Shown: piece after piece, positions 1,237 to 20,466 of the stretch
How positions within the stretch are numbered: position 1 is the first letter of the stretch
How the letters are laid out: every line of letters starts with the position of its first letter
Origin: an uncultured bacterium
Lineage (GTDB): Bacteria > Patescibacteriota > JAHJAL01
NCBI GenBank assembly: GCA_938004065.1
Contig: CALKWM010000020.1
Span: 1,813 to 65,812 of the forward strand
Direction: 5' to 3'
DNA length: 64,000 nucleotides
Notes under the pieces: model-generated
The model's database searches: none
Told to the model about the DNA's origin: nothing
Seen by the model: the letters and a program-made list of their open reading frames with translations, nothing else
Made by a program: the position numbers and the translations under genes

Positions 1237-1247
1237 AATGTTAAGTG

Positions 1248-2174: not shown

Positions 2175-2330
2175 AAGCCTTTTATATTTTAATAAAAAAT
2201 TTCTAATTTAATAATAAAGAAAATAAAAGTTTTTTCCAATTCGAAAAATTCCCCAAAGCATCAGAAATATTTTTTGTTTCTTTCTTTAAAATCAATTTAG
2301 GAAACAAAAATATTTCTGGTTTTCCAATAT

Positions 2331-2467
2331 TTCACATAACGTTTTCGAGTATGAGAAGTTCTGTTGAAGTGAAACGAAACAGAATTTGGGTTAAAAATAT
2401 TTTACGTTCATCTATTTAATTACTAAAAGGTAAAATATTTTTGCCTCATACTCGATGTTGTAGGATG
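2331..2467 (+). repeat. Module B variant (mosaic)
   Basis: tatttcacataacgttttcgagtatgag ... cctcatactcg keeps the same architecture with a compensated terminal inverted repeat. Confidence 0.7.
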
Positions 2468-2593
2468 TAAATTTTTTATCTGTATTTAAATTCGTTAAAC
2501 TCTGTATTACTTCTAAGAAAACTTGATTTTTTGTTTTAAAAAATTCCAGAGGGGCAAGGGGTGAATGGAATTTTTTAAAACTCCTTATTGTAT

Positions 2594-3085: not shown

Positions 3086-3086
3086 A

Positions 3087-3965: not shown

Positions 3966-4090
3966 TTTATTTTCTTAAGAAATAGAATGACACCATATTA
4001 CCCCTCATTAATTAAAAAAATCAAATTTTCTGTCCCTTTAAAACCACCAAAGGCCTGAAATTATCACAAGATAAAAAATTTATTTTCTAC

Positions 4091-4248
4091 AACGTGCCGC
4101 GGCTGATCCGATCGTGGCCAAAGGCCGCCGCAGGCGAGCCGATGGACATGTCGGATAGCCGCTGTTAGACGACGTCGCGGAGCGACGGAGGATAACGGGG
4201 GCGAAGCCGCGGCACGTTAGACAACGAGCGAAGCGATGTTGGCTAACG
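4091..4248 (+). repeat. GC-rich palindromic repeat module A, copy 1
   Basis: About 158 bp. Its ends, aacgtgccgcggct...agccgcggcacgtt, are perfect inverted complements. Internal hairpins include ggcc-aaa-ggcc, ccga-tggacatg-tcgg and cgacgtcg. It is visibly GC-rich against AT-rich surroundings. Confidence 0.85.
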
Positions 4249-4251
4249 TTT

Positions 4252-4388
4252 GCGTGTATGAGAAGTTTCGCCGACTTCCTTATTATTCATTATAGAGGAG
4301 GCGAAATTTGGGTGAAAGAAAAAGTGCAACCTTTGAAAATATTTAACGCACTTTTTCTTGAACCTCATACACGCTGTTATACGCTGTT
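4252..4388 (+). repeat. Structured repeat module B, copy 1 (always 3' of module A via a ggctaacgt junction)
   Basis: gcgtgtatgag...ctcatacacgc is a terminal inverted repeat. Inner stems are tttcgcc/ggcgaaa and aaaagtgc/gcactttt. Confidence 0.8.
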
Positions 4389-5048
4389 TCGCCCGTCGTT
4401 GATTTCAATATCAAGCTGTTTAATATAATCTGTCATAAATTCAACAAGTGGCTTTGCAAATTGCCTCGCCGATTCAGTACTCAAATTGTCATAACAACTA
4501 ATCTGAAAGTTGATTTGGTCTATAATAAAATTGCCAATACCAATTCCACCGTCAAAGCGTTTGTCAAAATCAACCGCTTTCATTTGCCATGTTTCACCTT
4601 TAATATCGGCGACATCATATTCTGGTTTTGAAGATTTAGAAGTGAAAGCTCTCATGATGCCGACCGCACCAAACAAATCCATCATATCAGCATCACGCAA
4701 AATTTTTAATAATTTGCCTTCGCCTTCGCGGTTTTTATTGTGAAATTTTATCGCATTACAAATCTCGGCAATTTTATCTTGTGTGAGTAAATTATTTTCT
4801 GTTAAAAATTTTGCGGACATTTCAGCACCAACTTCGCCATGCAGATTGCGTTTTTCAGCTTTTGTTAATCCAATATCATGCATTAAGGCTGAAATTTTCA
4901 CCACTTCTAAATCTTCAAAACTTTCCTTATCGGCAATTTGCAAAGCCCAATTTTTAACACGAACAACATGTTTAAAGTCATGAGCAACTTCATTGCTCAT
5001 AACGCTTTTTACATAATCTTCCACTTGTTGAATTTTTTTATTTATCAT
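4377..5048 (-). CDS. HD-domain metal-dependent phosphohydrolase
   Basis: The H...HD...D signature is present as AHDFKHVVRV ... ALMHDIGL ... LRDADMMD. The true start is probably MINKKIQ (ATG 5046-5048). The track ORF's N-terminal extension runs into a GC-rich repeat and is likely spurious. Confidence 0.7.
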   Translation of the reverse strand: MINKKIQQVEDYVKSVMSNEVAHDFKHVVRVKNWALQIADKESFEDLEVVKISALMHDIGLTKAEKRNLHGEVGAEMSAKFLTENNLLTQDKIAEICNAIKFHNKNREGEGKLLKILRDADMMDLFGAVGIMRAFTSKSSKPEYDVADIKGETWQMKAVDFDKRFDGGIGIGNFIIDQINFQISCYDNLSTESARQFAKPLVEFMTDYIKQLDIEINDGRNSV

Positions 5049-5068
5049 GTTTGAAATTTTAGTATAGG

Positions 5069-5352
5069 GCGAAATTGCGTATAATGGGCGGCGTTTATGC
5101 AACGTCTTGTATGGACGAAATCGTAAGATTTCGGACAGACGGGATGTAGCGAAGCGGTGCATAAACGACAGTTGTGCGAAGCTCCGCCTAAGCACATACT
5201 GGCGTGAAACGCCGCCCATTGTGCAAAATGAAGCGAAGCGGAATTTTGCACAACGTATCGGCATATCTGATGTTTGCCGTAGCGTAGCGGAGGCAAATAT
5301 GGGTGGAGGCTTTTGTATAAAAGCCGTAACCAGATATGCCGTGTTAGCTGAT
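5069..5352 (+). repeat. Mosaic repeat module E (A-like 5' part + B-variant 3' part)
   Basis: It begins attgcgtataatgggcggcgttt (cf. attgcgtataacgtgccgcggct of A). Its stems are aatgggcggcgttt and aaacgccgcccatt. It ends with ggaggcaaatatgggtggaggctttt...agccgtaaccagatatgccgtgttagctg, as the 341-472 variant does. Confidence 0.7.
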
Positions 5353-5419
5353 GTATTCCTTTTCTTTTTTCCGACAGCAGTCGGAATTGTTTTAAAAAAT
5401 TTTCAAATTTCTTTTTACG

Positions 5420-5537
5420 TTTTGGATTTTGGGCAGAGGGGTTAGGGGTGAATGCCCAAAATTCAAAACACAATATTTCTTTTTCGTTTGAGGGAGGGGC
5501 AAGAGGGGAATTAAAGGGGTGAATTGCCCCGACCGAA
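5420..5537 (+). repeat. Twin-hairpin repeat module C, copy 1 (3' of a minus-strand gene)
   Basis: attttgggca-gaggggttaggggtgaa-tgcccaaaat, then ggggcaa-gaggggaattaaaggggtgaa-ttgcccc. Both are perfect stems. Confidence 0.8.
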
Positions 5538-5543
5538 TTCTAC

Positions 5544-6535
5544 TTACTTGTTTTTGTATGGTGTCCATTGGGGGTTTTCTTTGATATATTCTTTTAAATA
5601 ATTAAGCGTTTTATTAGAATATTTTTGCACTTTTGATGTTTTTCCAGATTTAATCGAGGTGTGATATTCAGGATTATTTAATAATTTTAAATGTTTTATT
5701 AATTTTTGAATAAAATATGATGTTACATTCATTATACGAGAAAGGTCTGATTGTAAAAATGGATAATCAACTTCAGGATTACTTTTTTTGACTAAAACTG
5801 TAAGTGATTCCGATGTCTTTTTTGCTTTATTTGTAGTAATTTCAGATTTGTATCCTTTTGACGTTTCTACTGGCACTATAATAACATTCTCTTGCTTGTT
5901 TGTATAATCGTTTATTGACAAATGTCGACCAATTCTAGCTTTTTTTTGTTTTGATTTTATGTCATTTAGCCAATCCTTGTGACTAATAAATGTATTTTCA
6001 TTTTCGGTTTCGGCAAACTTGCAAGCACGATCAAGAATATATAACGCTCTATTTTTTTCTGACTTTGATTTTCTTGAGTATGCAAATAATCTACCTATCT
6101 TGTGTGAGTAAAATGTATGATCTTTAAATGCGACAGATAGATAATTTTTATCAAACTTTATAAAATATGATCTAAATTCTTCCTTTAGAATTTTATGAAA
6201 AGATTTTAAAGACCAGTAAATTAAGTGAGTTATGATTTCATCATCAAGATCGGGATAAATATTATGTAGTGATTCATTTCTTAAAGATATAATTTGTTGA
6301 ATTGTTTGATTTTCTTCCAATGATATTAAATGAGCTACATGGTGTAATTGATTGACTGCTTTATTAAAATTGCCTTGGAAAGCAGTTCCCATGCTTGCGC
6401 ATTAAATATTACTGATGCTTGCCTAGAGTGCGATCCCTCAACTCTATTGAACATTTCTATGCTTAATTTTGCAGCGTTTATGGCTGTATTCACGTGGTAT
6501 TGATATTTCATTATACGTGATTTTCTTTTTGCCAT
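5544..6535 (-). CDS. Hypothetical protein split over two overlapping frames (6335..6535 and 5544..6392); possibly frameshifted, with an N-terminal R-x4-H (HEPN-like) motif
   Basis: The two minus-strand ORFs overlap by 58 bp in different frames, directly downstream of the large MTase. The upstream piece contains AINAAKLSIEMFNRVEGSHSRQ, an R-x4-H pattern. Confidence 0.3.
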
Positions 6536-6536
6536 A

Positions 6537-9500
6537 TTATTTTATTGAATTTTCTACAATTTCAATTTCCTCTGGCGTAAGTTCGTAGAGTTTATAAACA
6601 AGCTGATCAATTTGCGATTCAAGATTTTTAGTATCCGCGTCTTTATTTTGTTTTTTGAGAGTTAAAATTTGATCAACTAATTTTACTAATGAATCTTGTG
6701 ATTCCTGACTGTTACGAATAATAGGAATTTGTGACATAGAGCCATTTTTTTGAGCTAAAAAATATTTATATCCACCACCTGCGTCCTTACCCTCATTTTT
6801 ATACCAAAAATTTAAAAGCTTTGAATTTAAAATAGCGACAATGTATTTTAATGCTAAGTCTGAATTTTCTTTTTTTAATAAAACAGGAACATTACCCACG
6901 GTAAAATAATTATCATCATCATAACTAAAACGATTTTCATCTGAGCGATAAGGTGTTAAAATTTTTTCTTGTTCAAAAAATTCCTTTTTTCTTGGCCAAT
7001 TTATGCTATACCATGGTATCTTGCCACTAACGCACTCTCGTTTTTTTTCTAATAAAACACGATATTTTTCAAGGTGTTTTTTTATATTTGGATACTTTTC
7101 TATGTGATGATCTTTTGTTATATAAATTAAATAATGTCTTTTGCTTCTTCTATTGGTAGCAAATTTCTTTACTTCATCAGTTGTAATCCAATCTTTTATT
7201 AATTCCTTTTTTTCTTCCAAATTTGGGCTTATTTCTGTTAAATCATTTTCTGTTAAGATAAAAATGCCTTTATTGGCTTCCCAATTTTTATTATATTTTG
7301 TTGCCAAAGTATTTGTAACTTTATCCGCACCTGTAATTATCCCTTGTTTAATTTCACAATATTCTGAAATAGGTTTACCTTTTTTCTTAATTTTATTTAT
7401 TAAATCTAAAACATCGGAAGATTTTGCATTTTCTGCGGGGATATCAATAATTAAATCATTCCCTTTATATAATTGTTGTTGTTCGAGGGAAGCGTAAAGA
7501 GATTTTTTATCTGACCAATCAAAAATAGATCTAAGAATTTCCGAATCAGCAAAACCTTTATTTTGCGTGCTACATATATTCGCTAAAAAATTTTTATCTG
7601 TGTTTTTTTCTAAAATTGTTATTATATTATGTTGCCCTAGAGCTGATTTGAATATTTTTAAATCATTGAAATTGATCAACTTTTTTATTATAGTACGTTT
7701 TTTAAAATCTTCTCTCAAGATTTTTGCCCCATTGGAAGATAGATAATAATTTGTTGTTATAAAAGATAGTTGTCCACTTTCTTTTAACAAATTTAATGAT
7801 CTATGAAAAAAGAAGTAGAACAAATCCATTCTACGTTTGTAAAAATTACCAAGAGACCCCATTCTCACAATTCTAAATATTTCTTTATGTCCTTTTTCAC
7901 CAACATACGGTGGATTTCCTATCACAACATCAAAGGCTTGAACCCCGTGCATTAATTCCGGATCGTAAAATTCTGAAGATGAGCTAATATCAAACGGTTT
8001 ATAGCTTTTTAATTGCTGTGTTTTTTTGTTATCAAACAAACTAGCATTTTGCGTAAGCTTTAGATAATCCTTTTGCAATTTTTCTTTTTTTATTTTGCTA
8101 CTTGTTTTGAAATATTCATTCCGAATAGTTATCAATTTATCTTTTAGATCATGGTCGGTAAGAAATGTTGCTTGCTCAGTGTTATCAAGCGGAATAAGTG
8201 TGTTGGCGCAAACAAATTTAAACTCAAGGTTTGGCAATGGGTCAACCTTTTCACCTTCTGGAATATCCACAATTATTGAAAGCCAAGCTCGCAGACGAGT
8301 GATCTCAATGGCTGTTTGTTCAATATCCACACCATAAAGTGATCGTGATAAAATATCTCGTTTTAATCCCGAAATATCTTTTTCAAATTTTGGATCAAGG
8401 CGAGAATATACTTTCACGAGTAAATGAAGCATGCCCATCGGAAAAGCACCAGATCCAACCGCAGGATCAAGCACTGTGAGAGGAGATTCTGTTTTTGAGC
8501 CTTCAAGCGCTTTTATAATAGCTTCACGATACGGCTTCCAATCACGACGTTTATTTTGATCCTGATCACGGAATATTGCTTCAGGCATACGCACAAGCTC
8601 TTCTATACGACGATCACGATCTGGGGCTTCTGGAACTTTAGTCTTGAGATATTCAATCAAGGATTGCTCGCACATATAGCTCACGATTTCTCGCGGAGTA
8701 TAAAAAGCACCGGTGGCTTTCTTTTTGCTATTGCCCGTATTTTCGTCAATTTGCTCTGCAAGCAAACTCTCAAAAATACGCCCCAACATTTCAGGATCAA
8801 TAGCGACATGCTGGAATTCCGGACTACTTTCATCAACTGTAAAATTGTATTTATTTAAGGTTGTAAAAAGTTGATTAAAATAACCATTTGGAAAAGTTAG
8901 TTTTGGGTCGTTGAAAAAATCAGTCGTGTTTTTATCAAAAAGACCACCGTTCAAATAAGGAGTCAATTTATCGCCGTTATCTCTTTCTAGTTCTTCTCGA
9001 TTTAATACTTCAAAAAAAAGTTTTTCCAGTTGGTTTTTGTAGTATTCTGATTGTTTTTCCGGATCAATCACCGAAAAATAATTAACATTATTATTTACTA
9101 AATTTTTCTTTTTCAAAAACCAAATAAAAAGCAAACGTCCAATAAGTCTGGTCGTGAACATTACTGACTGTTTGCGTCCAAAATCTTTTTCAAGATGGTG
9201 TACTAAAATGCTAAAATGTTCAACCAATTCAAGGTAAAATTTGCGATTGATCGGTTCAAAGTTGAAGCTTTCCCAAAGTTTTGAGTGTAAAGTATTTTTT
9301 AATTCAGCCTGATCAGCAATCTCTAATTCGGAAAGTTTCGCCCATTGAGTAAATATTTCTAATTGGGTTGGGGTAATATGATCTTTTAATTCAAGAGCGC
9401 GAATCTTAAATCTATTAGAAAGCAAAACTATTATACTATCGCAGGTTTCTGGTACAACAAAATCAATCCCTATATTTTTATAATCATTTGAAAGTGCATC

Positions 9501-9824
9501 TTCAAAATTTGGAGTAAGACCAATAATCCACGAAAGATTTGTTTTGCTAGTTTTTTTGACCCAAAAAAGTTTAAGATCAACTGGTTTTCCGTCTTCGTGC
9601 GGTAATTCATACGCCGCCGCTTGGCGAGCAAAACCTGGAGCAAGTTGAAATCTCGTTAATTCCGCGTCTACGCGAGGTATATTTACCAAAAATCTGTCTG
9701 TGGTTTTTATATTGAGTAGCCCAACCAGTTCCGTCGTAATTTTTTCCGCGACATCAAAAGATCTTTCATTTGAAAGTTGTTTTAAGAGTTGGTCAAATTT
9801 GTTTTTTATCTCTAGGGTATTCAT
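6537..9824 (-). CDS. Large gamma-class N6-adenine DNA methyltransferase (Type IIG / PglX / Type ISP-MTase-like) with a long N-terminal domain and a C-terminal putative TRD
   Basis: GAFYTPREIVSYM (motif I/X region) and VIGNPPYVGEKG (motif IV NPPY) are present. About 350 aa precede the MTase core and about 400 aa follow it. The start lies 4 bp after the stop of the upstream helicase gene. Confidence 0.8.
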   Translation of the reverse strand: MNTLEIKNKFDQLLKQLSNERSFDVAEKITTELVGLLNIKTTDRFLVNIPRVDAELTRFQLAPGFARQAAAYELPHEDGKPVDLKLFWVKKTSKTNLSWIIGLTPNFEDALSNDYKNIGIDFVVPETCDSIIVLLSNRFKIRALELKDHITPTQLEIFTQWAKLSELEIADQAELKNTLHSKLWESFNFEPINRKFYLELVEHFSILVHHLEKDFGRKQSVMFTTRLIGRLLFIWFLKKKNLVNNNVNYFSVIDPEKQSEYYKNQLEKLFFEVLNREELERDNGDKLTPYLNGGLFDKNTTDFFNDPKLTFPNGYFNQLFTTLNKYNFTVDESSPEFQHVAIDPEMLGRIFESLLAEQIDENTGNSKKKATGAFYTPREIVSYMCEQSLIEYLKTKVPEAPDRDRRIEELVRMPEAIFRDQDQNKRRDWKPYREAIIKALEGSKTESPLTVLDPAVGSGAFPMGMLHLLVKVYSRLDPKFEKDISGLKRDILSRSLYGVDIEQTAIEITRLRAWLSIIVDIPEGEKVDPLPNLEFKFVCANTLIPLDNTEQATFLTDHDLKDKLITIRNEYFKTSSKIKKEKLQKDYLKLTQNASLFDNKKTQQLKSYKPFDISSSSEFYDPELMHGVQAFDVVIGNPPYVGEKGHKEIFRIVRMGSLGNFYKRRMDLFYFFFHRSLNLLKESGQLSFITTNYYLSSNGAKILREDFKKRTIIKKLINFNDLKIFKSALGQHNIITILEKNTDKNFLANICSTQNKGFADSEILRSIFDWSDKKSLYASLEQQQLYKGNDLIIDIPAENAKSSDVLDLINKIKKKGKPISEYCEIKQGIITGADKVTNTLATKYNKNWEANKGIFILTENDLTEISPNLEEKKELIKDWITTDEVKKFATNRRSKRHYLIYITKDHHIEKYPNIKKHLEKYRVLLEKKRECVSGKIPWYSINWPRKKEFFEQEKILTPYRSDENRFSYDDDNYFTVGNVPVLLKKENSDLALKYIVAILNSKLLNFWYKNEGKDAGGGYKYFLAQKNGSMSQIPIIRNSQESQDSLVKLVDQILTLKKQNKDADTKNLESQIDQLVYKLYELTPEEIEIVENSIK

Positions 9825-9827
9825 AGG

Positions 9828-12800
9828 CTAATTATTATCTCTAGAAAATCCAAATATAGGGTTTACAGAAACTACTTTAACAGCTTGCTTCTCTTCAGGT
9901 AATATTTTCTTGATTTTTTCCAAAATACTGTCTCTTTCGGATAATTTTCCCTCGCGGATAACTTCACGAAGTTGTTTAGTTAATTTTCTAGCAATACGAC
10001 CATGAAAAACATTTCTCGTCATGAGTAGGCTTTCCAAACGCGCGCGATCAGACGCACTCCAGCCAACATTCATTGCCTCATCTAAAATTGTTTGTTGGGA
10101 AGGTGTTAATCTCTGAATATTACTATCAAAACGAGTTATTTGTGGGCCATTCTTTGATACATATTCAAGGTGTAGTTTCTTATTAAGAGTAATATTGTCT
10201 TTTTTTCTTTCTTGATCATTTGATCTTAATGTTTGCAGAGCTTCACCAGTAAGCAACACATCCAAAGCATTGGCACTTTTATTATTACGAAAAAAAGTAA
10301 ATTGTTTTTGATTGTTGGAAAATTCTGATTGAGAAAAAACAAGGACTTCCGGTGATTGCAAAATTTTCGTTTGATCCACGACACCCCACTTAAATACAGG
10401 TATTTTTTCTAAAGCATTTTGTGCTTCTGGTGTTGCTTGTTCTTTGAAATGTTTTAAATCCGCAATAAACTGATCGTCAGTAAAAACATCAGCTTCTTTT
10501 TCTAAACGCAAATATTCTGCAGTAGCAGTGTCGCTATCTGTGTCATAAATACCCTTATAATTAATTGGGTTAATTTGCTCTCCTAAAACAGATGAATCAC
10601 TTCCGATCGTTGCGTTGATCAGACTTATTTTATCTTCAAGTTTTGTTACCAAGCCAAGAAATTGATCTAACTCTTTATTTGGAACAATATTGATTACCTC
10701 AACCTCTGAATGAGGTGATCCAAGCCTATTAATACGACCGTTTCTTTGAATCATGCGAACCGGGTTCCAATGAAGATCATAATTTATAAGCAATCCACAA
10801 TCTTGTAAATTTTGTCCTTCAGCAAGAACATCAGTACTAAACAAATAAGTTAATTCCTCTTTTTCAGAAACACGTTCGCGCGCATCTTTTGCAACAGGAG
10901 CAAACCTTTCCGCTGATCGCATTGCATCTGCTTTCTCTTTACCAGATACAAATTCTGTATTTTCGGTAGTGAAAATATTTTTTTTATTATTTAATACATT
11001 TTCTTTTAAATATTTTATTGTGTCAGCAAAAAAAGAAAAAACAAGTATTTTTTTATTTGGATTTTTTTTAGCAATTTTAGTCACTTTTTCTAAAAATACT
11101 GCCAGTTTTTTATCTTTATTTTTAAACTGTTCGGTTAATTCTATTATTACGGCAAGTATTTCCTTTTCAGTAGCAATGTCTTCTTTAAGAGCTTTAATAT
11201 TGTGAGAATTTGTAGATACTTTTGTTCCAAGTTTTTTTGCTTTTTCAAGAATTTCTTCATCTGTTAAATCCAAATTTTCTCCATCCTCTGCTTCATATTC
11301 ATCTAAAATATCATCTATGTCAGAAAGATTTAGTAATAAGTTTTCTTGAAGAAAAATATCTTCGAATGTTTTTAATCTTTTTTGATATCTTTTTACTGAC
11401 GCTAGTAGTGCATATGATGATGATTCAAATCTTTTCAACCATACAATACGCAATAATCCATACATACTTAATTGTAGTCCGATTTTTTCTTTTGTTTCTT
11501 TGGTAAATTTAATATTTTTTATTTCATCAAGAGTCTTACCATAAACCTTGTGATCATACATTGATGTTCTATATGGTATAAAAGATAAAGAAAGAATATA
11601 TTGATATAAACGATAAATAATTGATTTGCCAGTGATATTCATGGTCTCTTTTTTTAATTCTTCTAATTGTCGTAATGGGTGAATTAAGATGTCAGTTGTT
11701 TCCTGAATTTTTTCAACAGGGGTTTTTTCAATTGACTCAATAACTGAATCAATTATTATACTTTGATATTCGCCGGAATTAAAAGTTTCATTGGAGACCT
11801 TGATTTTAGGAAAGAAAAACTCTTTACCATCTATTTCCAAACCATTACCGTTCAATTCTTCTTCAATACTTTGACGAGTATTTCTAATAACAAATTCACG
11901 TAAAATAGGATCAATTACTTGGCGTGCTTCTTTATAAATAGGTGTCATATCATTACCTTGCGCGCGATTTTGACTAATTTTTTTCTTTAGCTCAAATAAA
12001 GCATCGAAAAACGATCTTGATTTAATAACACCTTCAGAATTACGAACATTGACCTGTAAAAGATCTTGTTCACCACGAGTACCAAGCAAAATTTGATTTG
12101 TTAAGTCATCAATAGAATTATTTACTGGTGTTGCAGTAAGAAGTAGTGTATTGGCATCTGAATTATCAACTAACCATTCGCTTATTTGTTGAAAACGTTT
12201 ACTATTATGAGATCGCAAATTATGTGATTCATCTATAACAAATAAACTAATTGGTATATATTGGTCTTTTTTTCTTTCTTCATCTATTTGATTTTTATTT
12301 TGCATAGAAATAACCGTGATGCCTAGAATTTTCTCTCTAGCTATTTCGTTTTCCCACTGACCAACTAATGATTTTGGAGCAATCACAATTATTCTTCGTC
12401 CTATATATTGACGAATAACGCCAATTGCAGTAATTGTCTTACCTAAACCAACCGAATCTGCAAGCATTGCAACGCCGTTTTTATCTAAACGCCAAAGTAT
12501 TTGTTTGACACTTCTTTCTTGAAAATTTTGTAATTTACGTGAAGATAATGCTTCAATTTTTCGATCCTCTTTTAAAAGGTCTCCATACATATGATCAAGT
12601 GTCTTGATATACATTTCATACGGACTAAAAAGCATTTCTCCATGAATAGAAGTATCTATTAACTCTATAAACTTACCGGTCCATTCGACACAGCCCTCAT
12701 CTGTCCAAACCTCTTCAAACCAAGACAAGTGCCCATGTTCCTGATCCTTATTTTTAGGATTAAACTGGACTACGCGCTGATCGTCTTCGCCGGCATTTAA

Positions 12801-13262
12801 TTCGCGATTTGAAGTAATGCCATTTTTTGTAAAATTAGAAGAACCTATGACACCGATTGCTGTTTCGGATTCAAAATTACCAAAAATATAACATTTAGCA
12901 TGCAAAAATGCTTTTTTAAAAACTTTTACTTCAAGGATTTTATTATCAACTAATTGTTTTAACTCTTTTACTGTTGGTTTTAAATTACTGTCGATTTTTA
13001 GTTTTTGCAGATCTTCAAAAATATCTTTGTCTGGAAAATCTGGTTCAACTTCATTTAGTTGGTGTCGTGGGATTAAGGGTTCTCGACCAATAAGTAAACG
13101 AATTTTTTTATATTTTTTCAAATGAGGTAAAAGCAAAGCAGTCGCCTCAAGATCCCAATATCCAGTAGCAATAGAAATTTCATCAAAGTTAGCACTAACA
13201 GAAATTAGACTATTTAATAAATCTACTCTAGTATTGTCGATGATTTTTGGAAATTTTTTCAT
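9828..13262 (-). CDS. PLD-family nuclease fused to an SNF2/SWI2 helicase (SF2 ATPase)
   Basis: An N-terminal HKD motif is intact: LHAKCYIFGNFESETAIGVIGSSNFTKNG. Helicase motifs present are LADSVGLGKTITAIGV (I), VIDESHNLRS (II) and LLLTATPVNN (III). The C-terminal lobe reads EGQNLQDCGLLINYDLHWNPVRMIQRNGRINRLGS (V-VI). Confidence 0.85.
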   Translation of the reverse strand: MKKFPKIIDNTRVDLLNSLISVSANFDEISIATGYWDLEATALLLPHLKKYKKIRLLIGREPLIPRHQLNEVEPDFPDKDIFEDLQKLKIDSNLKPTVKELKQLVDNKILEVKVFKKAFLHAKCYIFGNFESETAIGVIGSSNFTKNGITSNRELNAGEDDQRVVQFNPKNKDQEHGHLSWFEEVWTDEGCVEWTGKFIELIDTSIHGEMLFSPYEMYIKTLDHMYGDLLKEDRKIEALSSRKLQNFQERSVKQILWRLDKNGVAMLADSVGLGKTITAIGVIRQYIGRRIIVIAPKSLVGQWENEIAREKILGITVISMQNKNQIDEERKKDQYIPISLFVIDESHNLRSHNSKRFQQISEWLVDNSDANTLLLTATPVNNSIDDLTNQILLGTRGEQDLLQVNVRNSEGVIKSRSFFDALFELKKKISQNRAQGNDMTPIYKEARQVIDPILREFVIRNTRQSIEEELNGNGLEIDGKEFFFPKIKVSNETFNSGEYQSIIIDSVIESIEKTPVEKIQETTDILIHPLRQLEELKKETMNITGKSIIYRLYQYILSLSFIPYRTSMYDHKVYGKTLDEIKNIKFTKETKEKIGLQLSMYGLLRIVWLKRFESSSYALLASVKRYQKRLKTFEDIFLQENLLLNLSDIDDILDEYEAEDGENLDLTDEEILEKAKKLGTKVSTNSHNIKALKEDIATEKEILAVIIELTEQFKNKDKKLAVFLEKVTKIAKKNPNKKILVFSFFADTIKYLKENVLNNKKNIFTTENTEFVSGKEKADAMRSAERFAPVAKDARERVSEKEELTYLFSTDVLAEGQNLQDCGLLINYDLHWNPVRMIQRNGRINRLGSPHSEVEVINIVPNKELDQFLGLVTKLEDKISLINATIGSDSSVLGEQINPINYKGIYDTDSDTATAEYLRLEKEADVFTDDQFIADLKHFKEQATPEAQNALEKIPVFKWGVVDQTKILQSPEVLVFSQSEFSNNQKQFTFFRNNKSANALDVLLTGEALQTLRSNDQERKKDNITLNKKLHLEYVSKNGPQITRFDSNIQRLTPSQQTILDEAMNVGWSASDRARLESLLMTRNVFHGRIARKLTKQLREVIREGKLSERDSILEKIKKILPEEKQAVKVVSVNPIFGFSRDNN

Positions 13263-13295
13263 AATAATTTAGTTTACCTGTTGTTATTGTATTCG

Positions 13296-13354
13296 TTTTC
13301 CCCTTATTAATAAATCGTTTTCGTAGCGGAGCGGAGAAAACACCTTATTCCCCT
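13296..13354 (-). promoter_or_regulatory. Conserved 58-bp leader element D, copy 1 (upstream of the PLD-SNF2 gene)
   Basis: The minus strand reads agaggggaataaggtgttttctccgctccgctacgaaaacgatttattaataaggggaa, about 35 nt upstream of ATG 13262. Confidence 0.5.
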
Positions 13355-13398
13355 CTATAATTAAAGAAAAAGAAATTTGAAAATTTTTTAAAACAATT

Positions 13399-13590
13399 GG
13401 GCGATAGCCCAAAAAAGAAAAGGAATATTTCAGCTAACGTTCCAGCGTATGCGATGTTTTTGCGACCAACGGGAGCAAAAATATGGGAGAGGGGCGAGCC
13501 GAGCCCCGAACCGCATACGCTGTGTTATACGCCCCGACGACCGAAGGGAGGAGAGCGCAGCGGGGCGCGACTGAAAGGAGCGAGTTCAAA
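13399..13590 (+). repeat. Mosaic repeat module F (same family)
   Basis: It contains gctaacgttccagcgtatgcgatg ... ccgcatacgctgtgttatacgc (B-like arms), ggagcaaaaatatgggagagggg and a GC-rich tail. Confidence 0.65.
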
Positions 13591-13655
13591 AAATATTTTT
13601 CATTCAATTTCATTTTGACAGGCTTTTTATTCAATAATTATAAATTTGTTTTTTT

Positions 13656-13768
13656 GTTTTGGATTTTGGGCAGAGGGGTTAGGGGTGAATGCCCAAAATC
13701 CAAAACTCCTTATTCTGTTTGAGGGAGGGGCAAGAGGGGAATTAAAGGGGTGAATTGCCCCGACCGAA
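13656..13768 (+). repeat. Twin-hairpin repeat module C, copy 2
   Basis: About 95% identical to copy 1. It lies 7 bp from the stop of the 13775..14695 MTase gene. A partial relative is at 2545-2576. Confidence 0.8.
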
Positions 13769-13774
13769 AACATT

Positions 13775-14695
13775 TTATTTCAATATTTTGTATTTTTTCT
13801 TATCAAGCAACTTTAGATCGCCTTTGCTCTTCCAAATTTCTTTGAAATCTTTGTTTCTCATAGTCCTAATGTGTCCAAGGTAAACTGAAACAAAATGCCC
13901 GTTGATTTTTGTTTCTTTTGTTGCCTTGATATTTTTTTCAGCAATTTTTACATAATCAGAATCAAGCTCAATTCCAATGTATTTTCTACCTAGTTGTTTA
14001 GCCGCAACCGCAGTTGTGCCAGTTCCCATGAATGGGTCAAGTACTACATCATCTTCATCTGTGGTCATTAAGATCAATCTCTCAAGTAGAGGGATTGGGA
14101 GTTGACAAGGATGTTCATCTCTTCGCTTTTTATGCCGGATCCGATGAATATCATTCCAAACATCAGAAAGTAATGGCCCAAAACCATGGGCTTGATCTTT
14201 TTTACCGCCGTAATCTTTTAAAAATTCATCACAAGTTCTACATCTTGGGTGCGGATATCTAATGTCATTAAATTTAAAATCTTTATGAGATTTTGATTTT
14301 GTATAATATAAAATTCCATAATGATTTGGTAATAAAGTTTTACCCATTGGTGCGCCGCCAGAATCCCAAGCAATCCAATGTCTGAAATATGCAATTTTAT
14401 TTAAATGCTCCGCATAATGCGAAAGCCAACGAGGAATATTGTGAACAAAAATTGCACCGGTTGGTTTTGTAATCCTGACCATTTCGCTCATCCAATCATT
14501 ACACCAATTCAAATAATCTTGCTTTTCTTTTGAATCCTCATAGTGATTATATTTTTTCTTTAAATTAAAAGGCGGATCGGCAAAAGTCATATCTACCGAA
14601 TTATCCGGTATTTCTTTCAATACCTTTAGGCAATCGCCCTTAACAATTGTATTTATATAGTTTTTTTTCATAATTAAGATATTGTTAAATTCCAT
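13775..14695 (-). CDS. Beta-class N4/N6 DNA methyltransferase
   Basis: Motif IV MTFADPPFNL is N-terminal and motif I DPFMGTGTTAVAAKQLG is C-terminal. It is a paralog of the 1248..2174 MTase. Its start overlaps the stop of the upstream gene by 22 bp. Confidence 0.85.
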   Translation of the reverse strand: MEFNNILIMKKNYINTIVKGDCLKVLKEIPDNSVDMTFADPPFNLKKKYNHYEDSKEKQDYLNWCNDWMSEMVRITKPTGAIFVHNIPRWLSHYAEHLNKIAYFRHWIAWDSGGAPMGKTLLPNHYGILYYTKSKSHKDFKFNDIRYPHPRCRTCDEFLKDYGGKKDQAHGFGPLLSDVWNDIHRIRHKKRRDEHPCQLPIPLLERLILMTTDEDDVVLDPFMGTGTTAVAAKQLGRKYIGIELDSDYVKIAEKNIKATKETKINGHFVSVYLGHIRTMRNKDFKEIWKSKGDLKLLDKKKYKILK

Positions 14696-16362
14696 ACATT
14701 CATAGCAATTTCTGCTAATTTTTCTTGCCGATTTTTTATTGACTCAGCTGACCATTCATTATAATCGTCATTTATCATTTTAGTTATCCATAAATCAGAA
14801 CTTTGATATCTAGATTTTTTATCTGTAAAAGGAGCATTTCCTTCTTCTGAGTTTGGTCGTGATTGCATTAATGTTAAGTTGCCAATACGATTTTTATATT
14901 CATTCAGTTCCTCTTCGGAAAAATTAGGCCAATTTTCGCTTGGATTTTTTGGGAGAATATGCTCTAAATTAACAGCGCTGGGATCACTATTAACTAAAAG
15001 TTCCGGATCATCTATACCACCTCTTTTATGATTTTCGATGGCCCTCAAATAATAGCGAGCATATTTTTCAGTGCTAGATTTTGCATAAATAAACTTATCT
15101 TTAAATTCGCTATCAGATGGAATAATATGTTGAAGAGCGGTTTTTAAATCCGTAGCATTATTTATTTTCCCCTCCGCTATATCTTTGGCCTTTTTAGCAT
15201 ACTCGACTTCAAGTGTACCTCCTCCAAGAGAGCCAGTTATTAAATTTCTAACGAGCCATGAAACAATTAATTTTAATGATTTTCGAATCTCTTGTTTGTT
15301 GGTGAATTTTTTGAGAATTGATAATAGCAAAGGCCTGTATTGTTCCAAATTAAAAAAATTTAATGTTTCAATGTATTGTTTTACTTTTGGATCAAAATCG
15401 TTCCAATATTGATGATTATGATTAACGATTGCTAAATATAGAGAAGTATCATTTTTTAAATTATTAACAAAAGTAATTGATTGTGTCGTATTGCGAATTT
15501 GACTTTTTATATCATTGTACAACTCCCTGTTTTTTTCTCTGGTAAGTCCGTTTTGGGCAGACCAATAATGCTTAATATATCTCAATATTAAACTTTCATT
15601 TTCTGCTGTTTCTATTTGAGATGTCATTTCAATCCAAGTATTTTGAATTTCCTCAATCCGATCACTTGCTTTGCTATATAAATAATTTTTAAGAAGATCT
15701 ACTTGCGCTAATTCCAAGCCCCTATCATTAAGAGTTTCGCAAATTGTGAAAGCGTTGGCTTTACTTGGGACAGTTATTGTCACGACTTTAAGTTTGTCAG
15801 ATATAAATTCTATCCAGTCATGCAAAATATTCAAATTCGCATCCGATAATTCGGCCAATTTATTTATTTTTTGAATTGATAGTTGTTTGGTATTTTTTAT
15901 TCTTTCGTGAGATTCCTTTGTTGACAAAGTAGCTTCATTTTTATTAACAATATATTCTCTAAAAAATATATTATCCAAATTGCCCAATTTAATTTTAGGA
16001 AGATGCTCTCCTGTACGCCTGTTAAATATACTCAAAAAGTCTTGTTGTATAGAATTGGCTTGTTCGTCTTCACTTCTTTGTCTAAAAAATTGTTCTACTG
16101 CTGATAAAAAAATATAAATGGAAGTAATTCTTTGTTGGCCATCAACGATCTCGAGCTCGTCAGAGTTTTCTTTTTCAGAAAAAACAATAGTTCCGAGAAA
16201 ATATTCATTTTCATTATTGCTAATTGCATTATGAATATCATTGAACATATCATCAATATGTTTTTTTTCCCATGCATAAGGACGTTGATATATTGGCACC
16301 GCGAGTTGATGCTCTTTTATCACCTTTCCGATCCCTTTAATTTGAAAGTTAATGCTACTCAT
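14674..16362 (-). CDS. DUF262(ParB-like NTPase/nuclease)-DUF1524(HNH) protein, GmrSD-like
   Basis: The N-terminus shows the DUF262 DGQQR signature in ...IYQRPYAWEKKHIDDMFNDI...EIVDGQQRITSIYIF. The C-terminus has an His-Me finger-like LEHILPKNP. Gene order matches GmrSD/SspE/BrxU-type enzymes. Confidence 0.75.
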   Translation of the reverse strand: MSSINFQIKGIGKVIKEHQLAVPIYQRPYAWEKKHIDDMFNDIHNAISNNENEYFLGTIVFSEKENSDELEIVDGQQRITSIYIFLSAVEQFFRQRSEDEQANSIQQDFLSIFNRRTGEHLPKIKLGNLDNIFFREYIVNKNEATLSTKESHERIKNTKQLSIQKINKLAELSDANLNILHDWIEFISDKLKVVTITVPSKANAFTICETLNDRGLELAQVDLLKNYLYSKASDRIEEIQNTWIEMTSQIETAENESLILRYIKHYWSAQNGLTREKNRELYNDIKSQIRNTTQSITFVNNLKNDTSLYLAIVNHNHQYWNDFDPKVKQYIETLNFFNLEQYRPLLLSILKKFTNKQEIRKSLKLIVSWLVRNLITGSLGGGTLEVEYAKKAKDIAEGKINNATDLKTALQHIIPSDSEFKDKFIYAKSSTEKYARYYLRAIENHKRGGIDDPELLVNSDPSAVNLEHILPKNPSENWPNFSEEELNEYKNRIGNLTLMQSRPNSEEGNAPFTDKKSRYQSSDLWITKMINDDYNEWSAESIKNRQEKLAEIAMNVWNLTIS

Positions 16363-16364
16363 AA

Positions 16365-17354
16365 TTATTTTTTTATAAAAGTGTCAAGTAATAGCTTTTC
16401 AAACCGTTTTAATTCTTCCTTATGAAAAGTAAAAACATCCTCATAGGCTGTAACCATTCTTTTTAGATCGCCTTTTCTGACATACCAACCAACACCATCC
16501 ACAAAACCAATAAATTTCGCCTTTGGATAATGCGACTTGATAAGTGAATCAATAGAAATCTCTGTTTTTGATTTATCGCCTTGACCGGATGAAGTTGTTA
16601 CCAAAAATGAGCTTTCGGCAATAATTAACGGATTTTGTTTGTTCGGAATAATAAAATCCATCGTTCTTTTATTATCGGGGGCATTGTCAATTAGTTCGCT
16701 GAGGTCGCCCTTTTCAAACGGTATTTCTAAATGATTTAAAATTTCTTCAATTAAAATTTCCGGATTATTTTCTTTCATTCCGGAATAGCTGCCTTTTTCT
16801 TTATATCTAATTAAAGTGTCGATCATTTCCGGCAATTCAAATTTTAGTTTTGAAATACTTAGTTTCTTCAATTCAAATAGCGGAATAGTTTTTGTTAAAA
16901 ACGGAACTGTTGAACCTTCAAAGAAAATATTTAAAATTCCTTTTCTGAAAAATTCATTTTCTTTTATAAATTTTGCTATTTGAGCGTCTGACCACTCTTT
17001 CAGATTATTTATATCTTCATCCTTAAACCATTTGTCCTTATAAACCAACTTACTCAATTCTGGATCATTAACAACTCTAATAATTGTAGTCAATCTTTTT
17101 AAGGTTTCGTTTGAAAATCCGGTCAAAGCAAGCAACGCCCTAAGACCATTTTCTTTTTCAATTAGTAGCTGTTCAAAAAATTCCTTTTTCAATCCCTGTG
17201 TTTCAATATTATTTTTCAATATCAAAAGCATTTCTTTTAACGAGTTTAGATAACCTTCATATTTTTCTTCAAAAGCTGGATTGAAAAAATAAAAAGTATT
17301 TTTATCAATCACAGTTTTAAATTTCAATTCGGTTGTAGGTTTTGTGTATTTCAT
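16365..17354 (-). CDS. Hypothetical protein; candidate restriction endonuclease partner of the adjacent alpha-class MTase
   Basis: The 329-aa ORF sits 5 bp after the MTase stop and 2 bp before the DUF262 gene. It has a possible nuclease core MDFIIPNK...IIAESSF. No confident motif was found. Confidence 0.3.
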   Translation of the reverse strand: MKYTKPTTELKFKTVIDKNTFYFFNPAFEEKYEGYLNSLKEMLLILKNNIETQGLKKEFFEQLLIEKENGLRALLALTGFSNETLKRLTTIIRVVNDPELSKLVYKDKWFKDEDINNLKEWSDAQIAKFIKENEFFRKGILNIFFEGSTVPFLTKTIPLFELKKLSISKLKFELPEMIDTLIRYKEKGSYSGMKENNPEILIEEILNHLEIPFEKGDLSELIDNAPDNKRTMDFIIPNKQNPLIIAESSFLVTTSSGQGDKSKTEISIDSLIKSHYPKAKFIGFVDGVGWYVRKGDLKRMVTAYEDVFTFHKEELKRFEKLLLDTFIKK

Positions 17355-17359
17355 AATTG

Positions 17360-18610
17360 TTATTTTTGATTAGTAAAAAATAATATGGATTCCTCCTTCA
17401 TCGTATTTTGTAACCCCCGGATCGGCTTCTTTAAATTAAGTTCAAATTTTAGTCCTTGTTTTTCTCCAAGCTCAGTGACTTTTGTTTCCAGTCTCACGCC
17501 ATTTGTTTGAATATCGTTTGTGCCAATAATTATAACTATAGGCGCGTTTTTCTTTGATACCCGTTTCATTTCACCAAGGGCTTGATTCATTTTGTCAAAA
17601 TAAATTTCTAATTTATTTTCCACGCCTCGCCCCTGTAGGCCGATCATCTCTTGTCGCAAAACTTCCAGATCGTAGCCGAGATATTCTAATTGGGGCTGAT
17701 CATTTTTTAAATAATCAATAGCAAAAGAATAGGGCGGTGAAGTGATTACTGCGTCCACGCTATTATCACCAAGCGGCAAATTTAAAATACTACCTTGAAC
17801 GATTTTACTTTTTCCGATTTTTAAATCCATTTTTTTTCTTGCTTCTTGAAAATATTTTAACGTTGAAACATATCTGTCCAATACACGCGGGAAAAGTTTA
17901 TCAATAGAAGAACTGCTTCGGCCGGCAAATCCGACGGTATCTAAAAATGCTAATAAAATTATTTCATAGTAGTGTCTTTTTTTATCGTCTTTATTGTTTT
18001 TAAAATATTCTGGAACTTTGTCTTTTTTCAACTTATCCAAAATTTCTTTTGGATTTTTAATAATTGACTCTAAAATTTTAATATCCAAATTTAGAGCAAA
18101 TGTTTTAACTTTTCCCATTAGCTCACAAAATGGGCTTAAATCAACAGAGATAGCATCAATTCCGAGCAAATTAGCCTCAACTGCAACAGTAGAACTCCCG
18201 GCCATTGGATCAAGAACAACATGGCCGGGTTTTATATCAAGTATATTTAACAATGCCCTTATCAGTTGCGGGTGAAATTTTCCACGATATGGAAAAAGGC
18301 CATGAGTTGCGTATCCAGTTGAATATTTCCCGTCTAAAAAGAAAATTTTTGTCCGGAAAGAGCTATTTTTATGAACTTCTTCTAAATTTTGAAGGTTGCA
18401 AGTTTTATAATGAGCTGTTTCTTTCCCGTCAACTAATTTAAAATATGCGCTTCTTTCAACTAATTCTTTTTTTGATAAAACCTCATATTCCCACAAAGCT
18501 AAATCTAATTCAAAAATCTCATCAGTCCCGTCAATGAGATAAAAATTATTACCAAATAGCCTTTCTATGATCGGTTTATGCTTTGTAGTCATGATAGTAT
18601 TATAGTTCAT
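17360..18610 (-). CDS. Alpha-class N4/N6 DNA methyltransferase
   Basis: The motif I-like VVLDPMAGSSTVAVEA precedes AVITSPPYSFAIDY (motif IV) by about 150 aa. This is the I...TRD...IV order. Confidence 0.8.
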   Translation of the reverse strand: MNYNTIMTTKHKPIIERLFGNNFYLIDGTDEIFELDLALWEYEVLSKKELVERSAYFKLVDGKETAHYKTCNLQNLEEVHKNSSFRTKIFFLDGKYSTGYATHGLFPYRGKFHPQLIRALLNILDIKPGHVVLDPMAGSSTVAVEANLLGIDAISVDLSPFCELMGKVKTFALNLDIKILESIIKNPKEILDKLKKDKVPEYFKNNKDDKKRHYYEIILLAFLDTVGFAGRSSSSIDKLFPRVLDRYVSTLKYFQEARKKMDLKIGKSKIVQGSILNLPLGDNSVDAVITSPPYSFAIDYLKNDQPQLEYLGYDLEVLRQEMIGLQGRGVENKLEIYFDKMNQALGEMKRVSKKNAPIVIIIGTNDIQTNGVRLETKVTELGEKQGLKFELNLKKPIRGLQNTMKEESILFFTNQK

Positions 18611-18668
18611 TTCCCCTTATAAATAAATCGTTTTCGTAGCGGAGCGGAGAAAACACCTTATACCCCTT
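18611..18668 (-). promoter_or_regulatory. Conserved 58-bp leader element D, copy 2 (upstream of the alpha-MTase operon)
   Basis: Same sequence with 3 substitutions. It abuts ATG 18610. Confidence 0.5.
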
Positions 18669-18760
18669 TCTAATAAATAAAAAAACAAATTTATTCCCCT
18701 TTTTAAAAAGCCTGTCAAAATTCCTTATAAAAAGAAAAATATTTTTTGAATTGCGTATAA

Positions 18761-18916
18761 CGTGCCGCGGCTGATCCGATCGTGGCCAAAGGCCGCCGCA
18801 GGCGAGCCGATGGACATGTCGGATAGCCGCTGTTAGACGACGTCGCGGAGCGACGGAGGATAACGGGGGCGAAGCCGCGGCACGTTAGACAACGAGCGAA
18901 GCGATGTTGGCTAACG
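18761..18916 (+). repeat. GC-rich palindromic repeat module A, copy 2
   Basis: Identical over about 165 bp to copy 3 and nearly identical to copy 1. Same orientation. Confidence 0.85.
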
Positions 18917-18917
18917 T

Positions 18918-19056
18918 CCGCGTGTATGAGAAGTTTCGCCGACTTCCTTATCGTTTATTATAAAGGAGGCGAAATTTGGGTGAAAGAAAAAATGCAACCT
19001 TTAAAAATTATTAACGCACTTTTTCTTGAACCTCATACACTCTGTTATATGCTGTA
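18918..19056 (+). repeat. Structured repeat module B, copy 2
   Basis: About 95% identical to copy 1. Confidence 0.8.
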
Positions 19057-19060
19057 TTTT

Positions 19061-19351
19061 TTACCATTTCGTACTAAAAGGAAAGATATTTTGGGGTAGC
19101 AGTTGAATTCCTTTAAAATACGTCCCACTTGATAAACAACCACTGCCACAGCTGTTATATTCAATTTGAACAGAGTAAAGTAAAAAGAGTACTAGAAATA
19201 CAAAAAATAATATAGAACGCCATTTAGATAAAACTTTTTTTCGTAGTAAAAACAAAATAATAGCTAGTGCTCCGAATAGAAGTCCTAATACAGTAATGTA
19301 AATATAAGTTTGTTGTGTGCAAACTGTTGGGCACAACATCATTAAATCCAT
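19061..19351 (-). CDS. Small hypothetical membrane protein
   Basis: The 96-aa ORF has two hydrophobic segments. It is flanked on both sides by identical ~165-bp GC-rich module-A repeats. Coding status is uncertain. Confidence 0.3.
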   Translation of the reverse strand: MDLMMLCPTVCTQQTYIYITVLGLLFGALAIILFLLRKKVLSKWRSILFFVFLVLFLLYSVQIEYNSCGSGCLSSGTYFKGIQLLPQNIFPFSTKW

Positions 19352-19379
19352 AATTTTTTAAGTTAAATGGTAAAAAATA

Positions 19380-19544
19380 TTGCGTATAACGTGCCGCGGC
19401 TGATCCGATCGTGGCCAAAGGCCGCCGCAGGCGAGCCGATGGACATGTCGGATAGCCGCTGTTAGACGACGTCGCGGAGCGACGGAGGATAACGGGGGCG
19501 AAGCCGCGGCACGTTAGACAACGAGCGAAGCGATGTTGGCTAAC
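19380..19544 (+). repeat. GC-rich palindromic repeat module A, copy 3
   Basis: Same sequence as copy 2. It lies 110 bp upstream of the tyrosine recombinase gene. Confidence 0.85.
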
Positions 19545-19653
19545 TAGTATATATACGAAAAGTTTATCTTATAATATACTGAAAATAGTAGTGTATAAGT
19601 TTATCAAGTAAATATTTATTATTTATCTTAATTTTACATTTTTGTAATACTGT

Positions 19654-20466
19654 ATGCAAAAATATTTGGATTTAGCCAAAAGGGAATTGGAGATTAGAAA
19701 TTATAGTTCAAAGACTGTTGCAAGTTATTTAATTTCTTTGAAGAAATATTTTGAATTCAAGAAATTTGATTTCGGTGAATTTGATGAAAACAATTTGAAA
19801 GATTATTTATCGGTGCAAATAAAGCAAAAATTATCTCCTCAAACTATCAATCTCTCATTGAACGCTATTAAATTTTTTTACTATGAGATGATGGGGATAA
19901 AAACCAAGATCAATATTCGGAGTGTGAAAAAAGAACACAAATTACCGGTGGTTTTGTCCAAGGATGAAGTCAAACAAATTATCGATGTGATAAAAAATCC
20001 TAAACACAAATTGATGATTGCGCTCTCTTATAGTGCAGGTTTACGGGTGAGTGAAGTGATAGTGTTAAAAGTTGGAGATTTGGCGCTGGAAGAATTGATT
20101 GTGCATATTAGACAAGCAAAAGGCAAAAAAGACAGAATAAGTTTATTGCCGGAAAAGTTGGTGAATGATATTCGAAATATGATTGTTGGAAAATCTTCCC
20201 ATGATTTACTTTTTGTCAGTGAAAGAGGGGGTAAATTGACAACTAGATCGGCGCAAAAGATTTTTCAAAATGCTTTGCATAAATCCGGCATTAAAAAAGA
20301 AGCGACTTTTCATAGTCTTCGCCATAGTTTCGCGACGCATTTGTTGGAAAATGGTGTTGATGTGCGTTATGTTCAGGAGCTATTGGGCCACGCCAATATT
20401 AGAACAACTCAGATATATACTCATGTTACCAATCCGGCGATTAGAAATATTAAAAGTCCCTTATGA
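19654..20466 (+). CDS. Tyrosine site-specific recombinase (Xer/integrase family)
   Basis: The C-terminal catalytic region reads HSLRHSFATHLLENGVDVRYVQELLGHANIRTTQIYTHV, i.e. R..H-x-x-R...Y. The N-terminus has a SAM-like core-binding region. The stop codon lies inside a 46-bp repeat core. Confidence 0.85.
   Translation: MQKYLDLAKRELEIRNYSSKTVASYLISLKKYFEFKKFDFGEFDENNLKDYLSVQIKQKLSPQTINLSLNAIKFFYYEMMGIKTKINIRSVKKEHKLPVVLSKDEVKQIIDVIKNPKHKLMIALSYSAGLRVSEVIVLKVGDLALEELIVHIRQAKGKKDRISLLPEKLVNDIRNMIVGKSSHDLLFVSERGGKLTTRSAQKIFQNALHKSGIKKEATFHSLRHSFATHLLENGVDVRYVQELLGHANIRTTQIYTHVTNPAIRNIKSPL

Follow-up and report, generated by a model that had tools for sequence, protein, structure and literature searches.

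GmrSD-like nuclease genes have been found embedded in Type I restriction-modification (R-M), BREX, Hma and DISARM systems (PMC4619093; bioRxiv 10.1101/2024.01.29.577857). HEC-06, a GmrSD-like defence protein, came to light through its gene's embedding in Hma systems; placed alone in E. coli, a representative lowered the plaquing of some phages, and its phage protection required the motifs DGQQR and EHxxP (bioRxiv 10.1101/2024.01.29.577857). BrxU is a GmrSD-like nuclease nested in BREX and serves as the model of complementary defence (Picton et al., 2021, PMC8565348). DndI and SspE read host phosphorothioation as a self mark, and DndI is transcribed together with a second effector, with which it has its modification module in common (PMC11662687). 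A stretch of 64,000 nucleotides (nt) from an uncultured Patescibacteriota bacterium (contig CALKWM010000020.1; referred to below as the window, with positions numbered along it) was analyzed here. On its minus strand a GmrSD-like gene, called G, was located between the restriction endonuclease gene (R) and the second methyltransferase gene (bM) of a predicted Type II cassette that begins with a first methyltransferase gene (aM). A preliminary description of the locus had taken GmrSD-like genes to stand alone, a premise that is outdated now that embedding is documented (PMC4619093; bioRxiv 10.1101/2024.01.29.577857).

The cassette resembles R-M systems of the DpnII/MboI type in combining a DpnII-family endonuclease with amino-methyltransferases of alpha and beta motif order in one operon, with GATC as the probable target. 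The gene order of MboI, M-R-M, matches that of the cassette. It differs in that aM is not of the Dam/D12 class and carries SPPY as motif IV, in that the Pfam match of R lies at threshold, and in that G is embedded in ∼12% of scorable cassettes. G and HEC-06 (Payne et al., bioRxiv 10.1101/2024.01.29.577857) share the DUF262-linker-DUF1524 layout, the DGQQR and EHxxP motifs and embedding in the orientation of the host genes within a modification-based defence system, but the host of G is a three-gene Type II R-M system and not Hma, BREX, DISARM or Type I, and the G subclade was found in one host system only. BrxU is likewise a GmrSD-like nuclease inside a methylation-based system, one target being unmodified DNA and the other modified DNA; it is, however, a distant relative of G (15% identity), and proteins like BrxU are found in host systems of several kinds. 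Among solved structures DndI and SspE are closest to G, and they are tied genetically to a host modification module, whereas G lies beside base methyltransferases with no dnd or ssp genes, identity is ∼21%, and methyl sensing in the G family is hypothetical. RloF/GmrSD homologues in Type I R-M loci (PMC4619093) are, like G, DUF262 genes among classical R-M genes; they show ordinary intergenic spacing, in contrast to the stop/start-coupled and open reading frame (ORF)-exact insertion of G in a Type II locus.

In the literature consulted on GmrSD-like embedding we found no Type II host system, no whole sublineage confined to one host cassette and one codon-precise site, and no presence/absence series across phyla and across bacteria and archaea; the phrase 'RM Type II' is absent from the embedding preprint (bioRxiv 10.1101/2024.01.29.577857). 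A standard pipeline would give the locus the label 'RM type II + HEC-06'. To this the locus adds a G sublineage that lives only in one Type II cassette at a codon-precise position, and a comparison of four-gene with three-gene cassettes could show if a nuclease embedded in this way is an autonomous add-on or needs the modification of its host system.

The Type II cassette and its genes

The ORF list of the window gave four minus-strand genes in the order aM (17360-18610, 416 amino acids (aa)), R (16365-17354, 329 aa), G (14674-16362, 562 aa) and bM, whose longest ORF (13775-14695) encodes 306 aa. The spacing was 5 base pairs (bp) between aM and R and 2 bp between R and G, and the ORFs, coordinates and gaps were as in the preliminary description. 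That description also had G and bM overlapping by 22 bp. The overlap is present in the longest ORF, but homologues of bM begin with an ATG at 14669-14671 (MKKNYINT...), 2 bp past the G stop, and judged from these homologues the overlap is an artefact of the longest-ORF call (start 14695). With bM accordingly placed at 13775-14671, both borders of G read TAA-TT-ATG. The R/G junction, TAATTATG (16360-16367, minus strand), contains the R stop, 2 nt and the G start, and homology to the three-gene loci L002 and L003 ends at 16360/16359. The G/bM junction (14669-14676, minus strand) is the second copy of this 8-bp direct repeat, and homology to L002 and L003 picks up at 14676.

Relatives of R were collected from one genome per species. 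R homologues amounted to 2519 proteins. An R relative was encoded by 416 species genomes, and the 80 best loci were inspected, of which 75 were scorable for G and 5 were unscorable. The order aM-R-bM held wherever all three genes were visible with enough flanking DNA; at five loci bM was matched but no upstream aM was. R directly abutted bM in 66 of the 75 scorable cassettes, and G lay between them in the other nine. On this comparison aM-R-bM is a complete, conserved three-gene Type II cassette and, since it is complete in those 66 loci, G is not its restriction component.

R relatives of 74-98% identity were found in Patescibacteria, Bacteroidota, Planctomycetota, Nitrospinota, Proteobacteria and archaea (Altiarchaeales, Methanoperedenaceae). 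R was the most conserved gene of the cassette. The ratio of nonsynonymous to synonymous substitution rates (dN/dS) for R was 0.02-0.03 among the L001-L080 homologues, with synonymous sites near saturation, and this conservation implies very strong constraint and frequent horizontal transfer. The locus points to R as a restriction enzyme both unusually conserved and mobile between bacteria and archaea. No R homologue was found among PLSDB plasmids, and prophages gave one weak match only.

The product of R is assigned by annotation and homology as the cognate Type II restriction endonuclease, of the DpnII family. Its match to Pfam DpnII (PF04556) was borderline, covering residues 226-312 and scoring 23.0 bits where the cut-off is 23. 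Many homologues of at least 78% identity carry precomputed PF04556 matches and the NCBI 'DpnII family' name, and for proteins 93-96% identical to R the NCBI name is 'DpnII family type II restriction endonuclease'. The AlphaFold2 model of R had a predicted local distance difference test (pLDDT) score of 70. BstEII was its only significant PDB match (Foldseek E = 3e-4), with Ecl18kI and BbvCI far weaker, and the predicted fold gives moderate support for a Type II enzyme and is not proof. When PDB sequences were searched with a profile of the R alignment there was no match, and NCBIfam holds no model for R or G.

The alpha- and beta-methyltransferase calls of the preliminary description, and its DUF262-DUF1524 call for G, hold on Pfam matches and motif order. 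In aM (Pfam N6_N4_Mtase and UPF0020; PADLOC MTase_II) motif I, VLDPMAGSS, lies at ∼133-147, and because this is ∼150 aa ahead of SPPY (∼290) the order is alpha-like. SPPY was invariant in 75 of 75 aM homologues. The D12 match of aM (E = 0.002, 18.2 bits) fell under the cut-off of 22, so that aM is not of the Dam-like D12 class to which DpnM and M.MboIA belong. bM matched Pfam N6_N4_Mtase at E = 1e-50 and is of the beta class, since DPPF precedes FxGxG; DPPF was found in 88 of 88 bM homologues, and PDB relatives of bM include M.MboIIA, CcrM and DpnA-like enzymes. The usual motif rule suggests N4-cytosine methylation by aM (SPPY) and N6-adenine methylation by bM (DPPF); at GATC, bM would be predicted to give G(m6A)TC and aM perhaps GAT(m4C).

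One option of the preliminary description was that the restriction role in a Type II-like system belongs to G itself, with the two methyltransferases giving protection and the 329-aa protein being something else. A nuclease does share an operon with two methyltransferases here, and LlaJI is reportedly a case of Type IV-like machinery converted to modification-protected restriction; a review alludes to an unnamed case. This option fails against the DpnII-family assignment of the 329-aa protein, the standing of R as the most conserved cassette gene and the G-less majority form of the cassette (66 of 75), and we regard it as very improbable.

The target of the cassette is likely GATC, on circumstantial grounds. 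One hint is the membership of R in the DpnII family. The four-gene cassette was also found in assemblies of Kuenenia stuttgartiensis, and in the methylome of K. stuttgartiensis strain MBR1 G(m6A)TC was methylated at 99.8% of sites (PMC5854607). Observed/expected GATC was 0.59 in the core genome of the window vs 1.29 in the island (first 19 kilobases (kb)), and the median was 0.50 in carrier loci vs 0.74 in controls (p = 0.003), a comparison that is confounded because the sampled organisms differ and other k-mers (GGCC, CTAG) differ more. The k-mer avoidance signal is compatible with GATC and not specific for it.

Linkage and movement of G

Both domains of G were matched above cut-offs (GmrSD_N, E = 1.8e-37, 129.8 bits; GmrSD_C, E = 6.5e-27, 94.6 bits). 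The PADLOC HEC-06 model PDLC04157 was matched at E = 7e-192, with residues 1-558 on model positions 1-556 of 558, and G is annotated as an optional embedded gene for a HEC-06-type predicted NTPase-HNH nuclease. Among the cassette-clade relatives of G, DGQQR was kept in 27 of 27 and EHILP in 26 of 27, and both catalytic motifs are intact in the window protein. The AlphaFold2 model of G had a pLDDT of 86. DndI (9jfl) was the best PDB match by sequence (E = 8e-25) and ranked first in Foldseek (2e-18), ahead of SspE (2e-13) and BrxU (5e-6, 15% identity). At ∼21% identity to the closest solved relatives, this ranking of predicted structure and sequence is a lead and assigns no function. The sensor residues of DndI, P23/Y25/Q26, are matched in the alignment by P23/Y25/Q26 of G, in a patch that is the generic DUF262 QR motif. 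No extra reader domain was found in G by the Pfam scan or in the AlphaFold2 model, and no dnd or ssp domains were found among the scanned proteins of window positions 1-24500, the neighbours of G being methyltransferases and a restriction endonuclease.

In the G search every relative of at least 43% identity with enough flanking DNA sat between R and bM. Loci with this placement were L081-L082, L084-L089, L092 and L094-L099; it was also seen in Kuenenia, Prevotella koreensis, a 3.7-Mb genome, a random contig and nine R-found loci. The same order and spacing were present in ∼25 independent loci of different phyla (Patescibacteria, Planctomycetota (Kuenenia), Bacteroidota, Nitrospinota, Cloacimonadota and others), and chance falls far short of explaining the four-gene arrangement. 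At 38% identity or less, none of 71 metagenome loci had aM, R and bM around G. Relatives at 23-38% identity were stand-alone genes in varied contexts, with heterogeneous neighbours (a few Type I R-M genes, Vsr, IS1 and unrelated genes) that were usually separated by ordinary intergenic gaps and often on the other strand. That the G lineage was found only in this cassette suggests, but does not prove, that G works with the cassette. The second option of the preliminary description, a Type II R-M system coupled to a sensor nuclease, thereby stands as far as the linkage of a Type II R-M system to a GmrSD-like nuclease is concerned, and does so clade-wide.

Fortuitous adjacency, with an unrelated Type IV gene having landed in the operon, is hardly credible. 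It would suit the closest three-gene relatives, in which R is 98% identical and G is absent, but the insertion point and the coupling recur in the ∼25 loci across phyla, and divergence of R and G is correlated (Spearman 0.76). G was also considered as an Hma-embedded gene of the neighbouring operon, which encodes an HKD-SNF2 protein and a Type IIG-like methylase. Other cassette loci have no homologues of those downstream helicase and methylase genes, and G therefore belongs with the Type II cassette.

The sole clade member without R and aM was a truncated G on the predicted viral contig L188, which still adjoins bM. There (647-2923) a G of 422 aa, with most of DUF262 gone, is followed by bM, and unrelated methylases lie close by. 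L188 is a candidate for a decayed cassette remnant or for a methylase retained by a phage, and was the single cassette-clade remnant found in the scan of viral contigs. In the prophage L176 (4551-9611) a G relative (36% identity) is convergent to a 373-aa protein weakly similar to the C-terminal half of R (28%), beside a large protein with sub-threshold methyltransferase similarity only. This hints that a link between G-type nucleases and DpnII-like proteins may predate the cassette clade. In L084-L089 (about 5560-17690 in L084) a 68-aa helix-turn-helix, C-protein-like gene lies ahead of the four-gene cassette; in the window no C-protein was found upstream of the cassette. Genes for a DUF6119 protein, an integrase, AlpA and a small terminase come after the cassette in this one lineage, L084-L089, which places it on an integrative phage-like element.

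Cassettes with G were scattered through the R tree. G was under purifying selection (dN/dS 0.12-0.21) and its amino-acid change was 5-8 times faster than that of R. Presence or absence of G corresponded to the exact ORF, and in several close pairs with and without G the gene was flanked by short direct repeats of which the G-less relative keeps one copy. TAATTATG occurs twice in the window and once in L001/L002, at R/bM; in L025 ATGAGCAAAATAGA...ATGAACAAAATAGA surround G, and in L049 ATGAGCAAAATAGA is fused to bM. The aM-R DNA of the window was 91-99% identical to that of the G-less loci L002/L003 (synonymous divergence, dS, 0.3-0.4) and the bM DNA only 83-89% identical (dS 1.2-1.8), while the window G was at most 70% identical to any other G. 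By these figures the window cassette is a mosaic. On the simplest account of the pattern, G would be carried from one cassette to another when the conserved genes on either side recombine homologously, and deletion between the short direct repeats would remove it. The polymorphism for G across phyla, in bacteria and archaea, provides a natural comparison of four-gene with three-gene cassettes.

Gene borders were stop/start overlaps (ATGA) or 2-nt spacers in all relatives, and no convincing internal terminators were found within the four-gene operon; on both grounds we infer that the four genes are co-transcribed. Among the cassette genes only aM has a Shine-Dalgarno (SD)-like sequence. It lies (AAGGGG) in a 94-nt leader upstream of aM (18598-18691, minus strand; family D5), which is also found upstream of the helicase-methylase operon (13285-13378). 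The two leader copies are 84% identical, and a 36-nt core, GGTGTTTTCTCCGCTCCGCTACGAAAACGATTTATT, with a GTTTTC...GAAAAC hairpin, is identical in both; shuffles gave 0 matches. The leader is a candidate shared promoter-proximal or regulatory element. Downstream of bM a terminator-like hairpin with a T-run (13397-13412, minus strand) is a candidate for the operon end. A 52-nt trailer, 100% identical, follows both operons (13717-13768 and 5486-5537), and the leader and trailer pairs may be shared regulatory or recombination signals.

Candidate roles of G

The reading preferred here, with confidence that is about even, is by analogy with BrxU in BREX: G would be an accessory, co-translated second effector that acts independently. 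Host DNA would be marked by aM (SPPY) and bM (DPPF), probably at GATC, and unmarked incoming DNA would be cut by R. A single transcript would extend between a promoter and leader upstream of aM (18598-18720) and the hairpin at 13397-13412, with the downstream cassette genes, including G, translated by stop/start coupling. G would tolerate the N4/N6 methylation of the cassette and attack DNA that R cannot cut, such as hypermodified phage DNA. Independence is favoured because distant family members stand alone and so need no dedicated methylases, because the HEC-06 representative protected E. coli when cloned alone, and because G is dispensable in most cassettes. The two methyltransferases are predicted to methylate amino groups, which is compatible with a nuclease aimed at C5-modified cytosines, and fast evolution of G under purifying selection is as expected of an arms-race effector. 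Precedents for genes in the same orientation that act independently are BrxU in BREX and RloF in Type I loci (PMC4619093).

Several points weigh against this reading. An independent G should escape the cassette, and 0 escapes were seen in ∼25 clade members with enough flanks. The closest solved relatives, DndI and SspE, use a host mark as self, and the Type IV enzyme BrxU is more distant. The substrate of G in the cassette-bound clade would be assigned purely by analogy, and the HEC-06 protein that was assayed is a different family member (bioRxiv 10.1101/2024.01.29.577857). The GATC part is circumstantial, and GGCC and CTAG differ more than GATC between carrier and control loci.

The main alternative, possible though doubtful, is one in which G, as a second effector, senses the methyl mark of aM and bM as self and nicks unmarked DNA, as DndI and SspE do with phosphorothioate. 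One modification module would then serve both R and G, as DndBCDE serves DndFGH and DndI. In its favour are the obligate linkage, with all clade members of at least 43% identity and enough flanks lying between R and bM and 0 of 71 metagenome loci at 38% or less doing so, the fixed position and the conserved start/stop coupling; DndI is the best PDB match both by sequence (8e-25) and by fold (2e-18), its P23/Y25/Q26 residues recur in G, and it is co-transcribed with another effector that shares its modification module (PMC11662687). Yet P-x-Y-Q-R belongs to the QR motif that is generic to DUF262 proteins, the cue of a methyl in the major groove differs from that of sulfur in the backbone, and G has no extra reader domain. 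Nor would mark sensing sit easily with distant family members that stand alone, with a HEC-06 representative that protects alone, with the dispensability of G in 88% of scorable cassettes, or with the faster divergence of G compared with R and bM, which are highly conserved and whose target presumably does not change. By analogy with DndI and SspE, the clade as a whole might be one of base-methylation-licensed nucleases that read the m6A/m4C mark of aM and bM as self and nick unmarked DNA, which we consider rather unlikely. If this were true, a Type II R-M module would drive two mechanistically different effectors from one epigenetic mark, and with G a DUF262/DUF1524 enzyme would for the first time be tied to a methyl self-mark. 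A further proposal is that G guards a selfish cassette as a modification-dependent nuclease directed against foreign methylation, which would exclude or punish competing R-M systems or methylated plasmids and not hypermodified phages. McrBC and Mrr are said to be established cases of this concept. The high mobility of the cassette, its spread across domains and its location in defence arrays or cassette arrays and on integrative elements would suit a guard, but the proposal is indistinguishable by sequence from the preferred reading of G as an independent second effector and explains the exclusive linkage no better; we hold it to be improbable.

Surroundings of the cassette

All window genes from ∼600 to 19350 are on the minus strand and are split into blocks by repeated intergenic elements (316-370, 2306-2360, 4088-4387, 13404-13560, 18741-19055 and 19379-19544). 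A 55-nt repeat family occupies five intergenic gaps. A GC-rich repeat (∼60% GC, 166-300 nt) is present in three copies at 96-100% identity; as single strands these elements fold into long imperfect hairpins (z = -3.7, -4.2), and their ends resemble the core sites of integron attC (GTCTAAC...GTTATAC). Rfam gave no match to the intergenic repeats. A divergent tyrosine recombinase (19654-20466) adjoins the array; it passes the NCBIfam 'XerA/integron integrase' model (226.9 vs 220) and fails the IntI model (212 vs 265). Window positions 300-19700 tentatively look like an integron-like array of defence cassettes. A 100% identical public contig, DAIUKQ010000006.1 (GCA_036848155.1; L090), ends 59 bp after bM (∼13716), inside the trailer repeat, and that assembly probably broke on the trailer repeats.

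A second candidate defence operon of three genes lies at 5544-13262 on the minus strand. It encodes a 1144-aa PLD(HKD)+SNF2 helicase (PADLOC 'HKD+Snf2' C3a139, E = 3e-41, and also DrmD- and HmaA-like models). Its other two products are an Eco57I/MmeI-like methyltransferase of 1095 aa that has a TaqI_C domain and a protein of 282 aa that matches PDC-S19 weakly; none of the three scored above the cut-off of any curated NCBIfam model. A Type II-like pair at 622-2174, minus strand, consists of a beta-class N6_N4 methyltransferase of 308 aa and, after it, a protein of 204 aa without a family match, which is presumably the restriction endonuclease. At 4377-5473 the first ∼70 codons of a 295-aa HD-domain ORF and the overlapping ORFs of 142 and 112 aa cross repeat elements and, because they run through these elements, are probably non-coding; the HD protein likely starts near MINKKIQQ. 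Over the first 19 kb the GC skew was flat or negative, and from ∼21 kb on it was strongly positive (+0.2 to +0.47). Together with the GATC contrast, this is consistent with an island acquired recently or with a block whose orientation opposes the replication strand.

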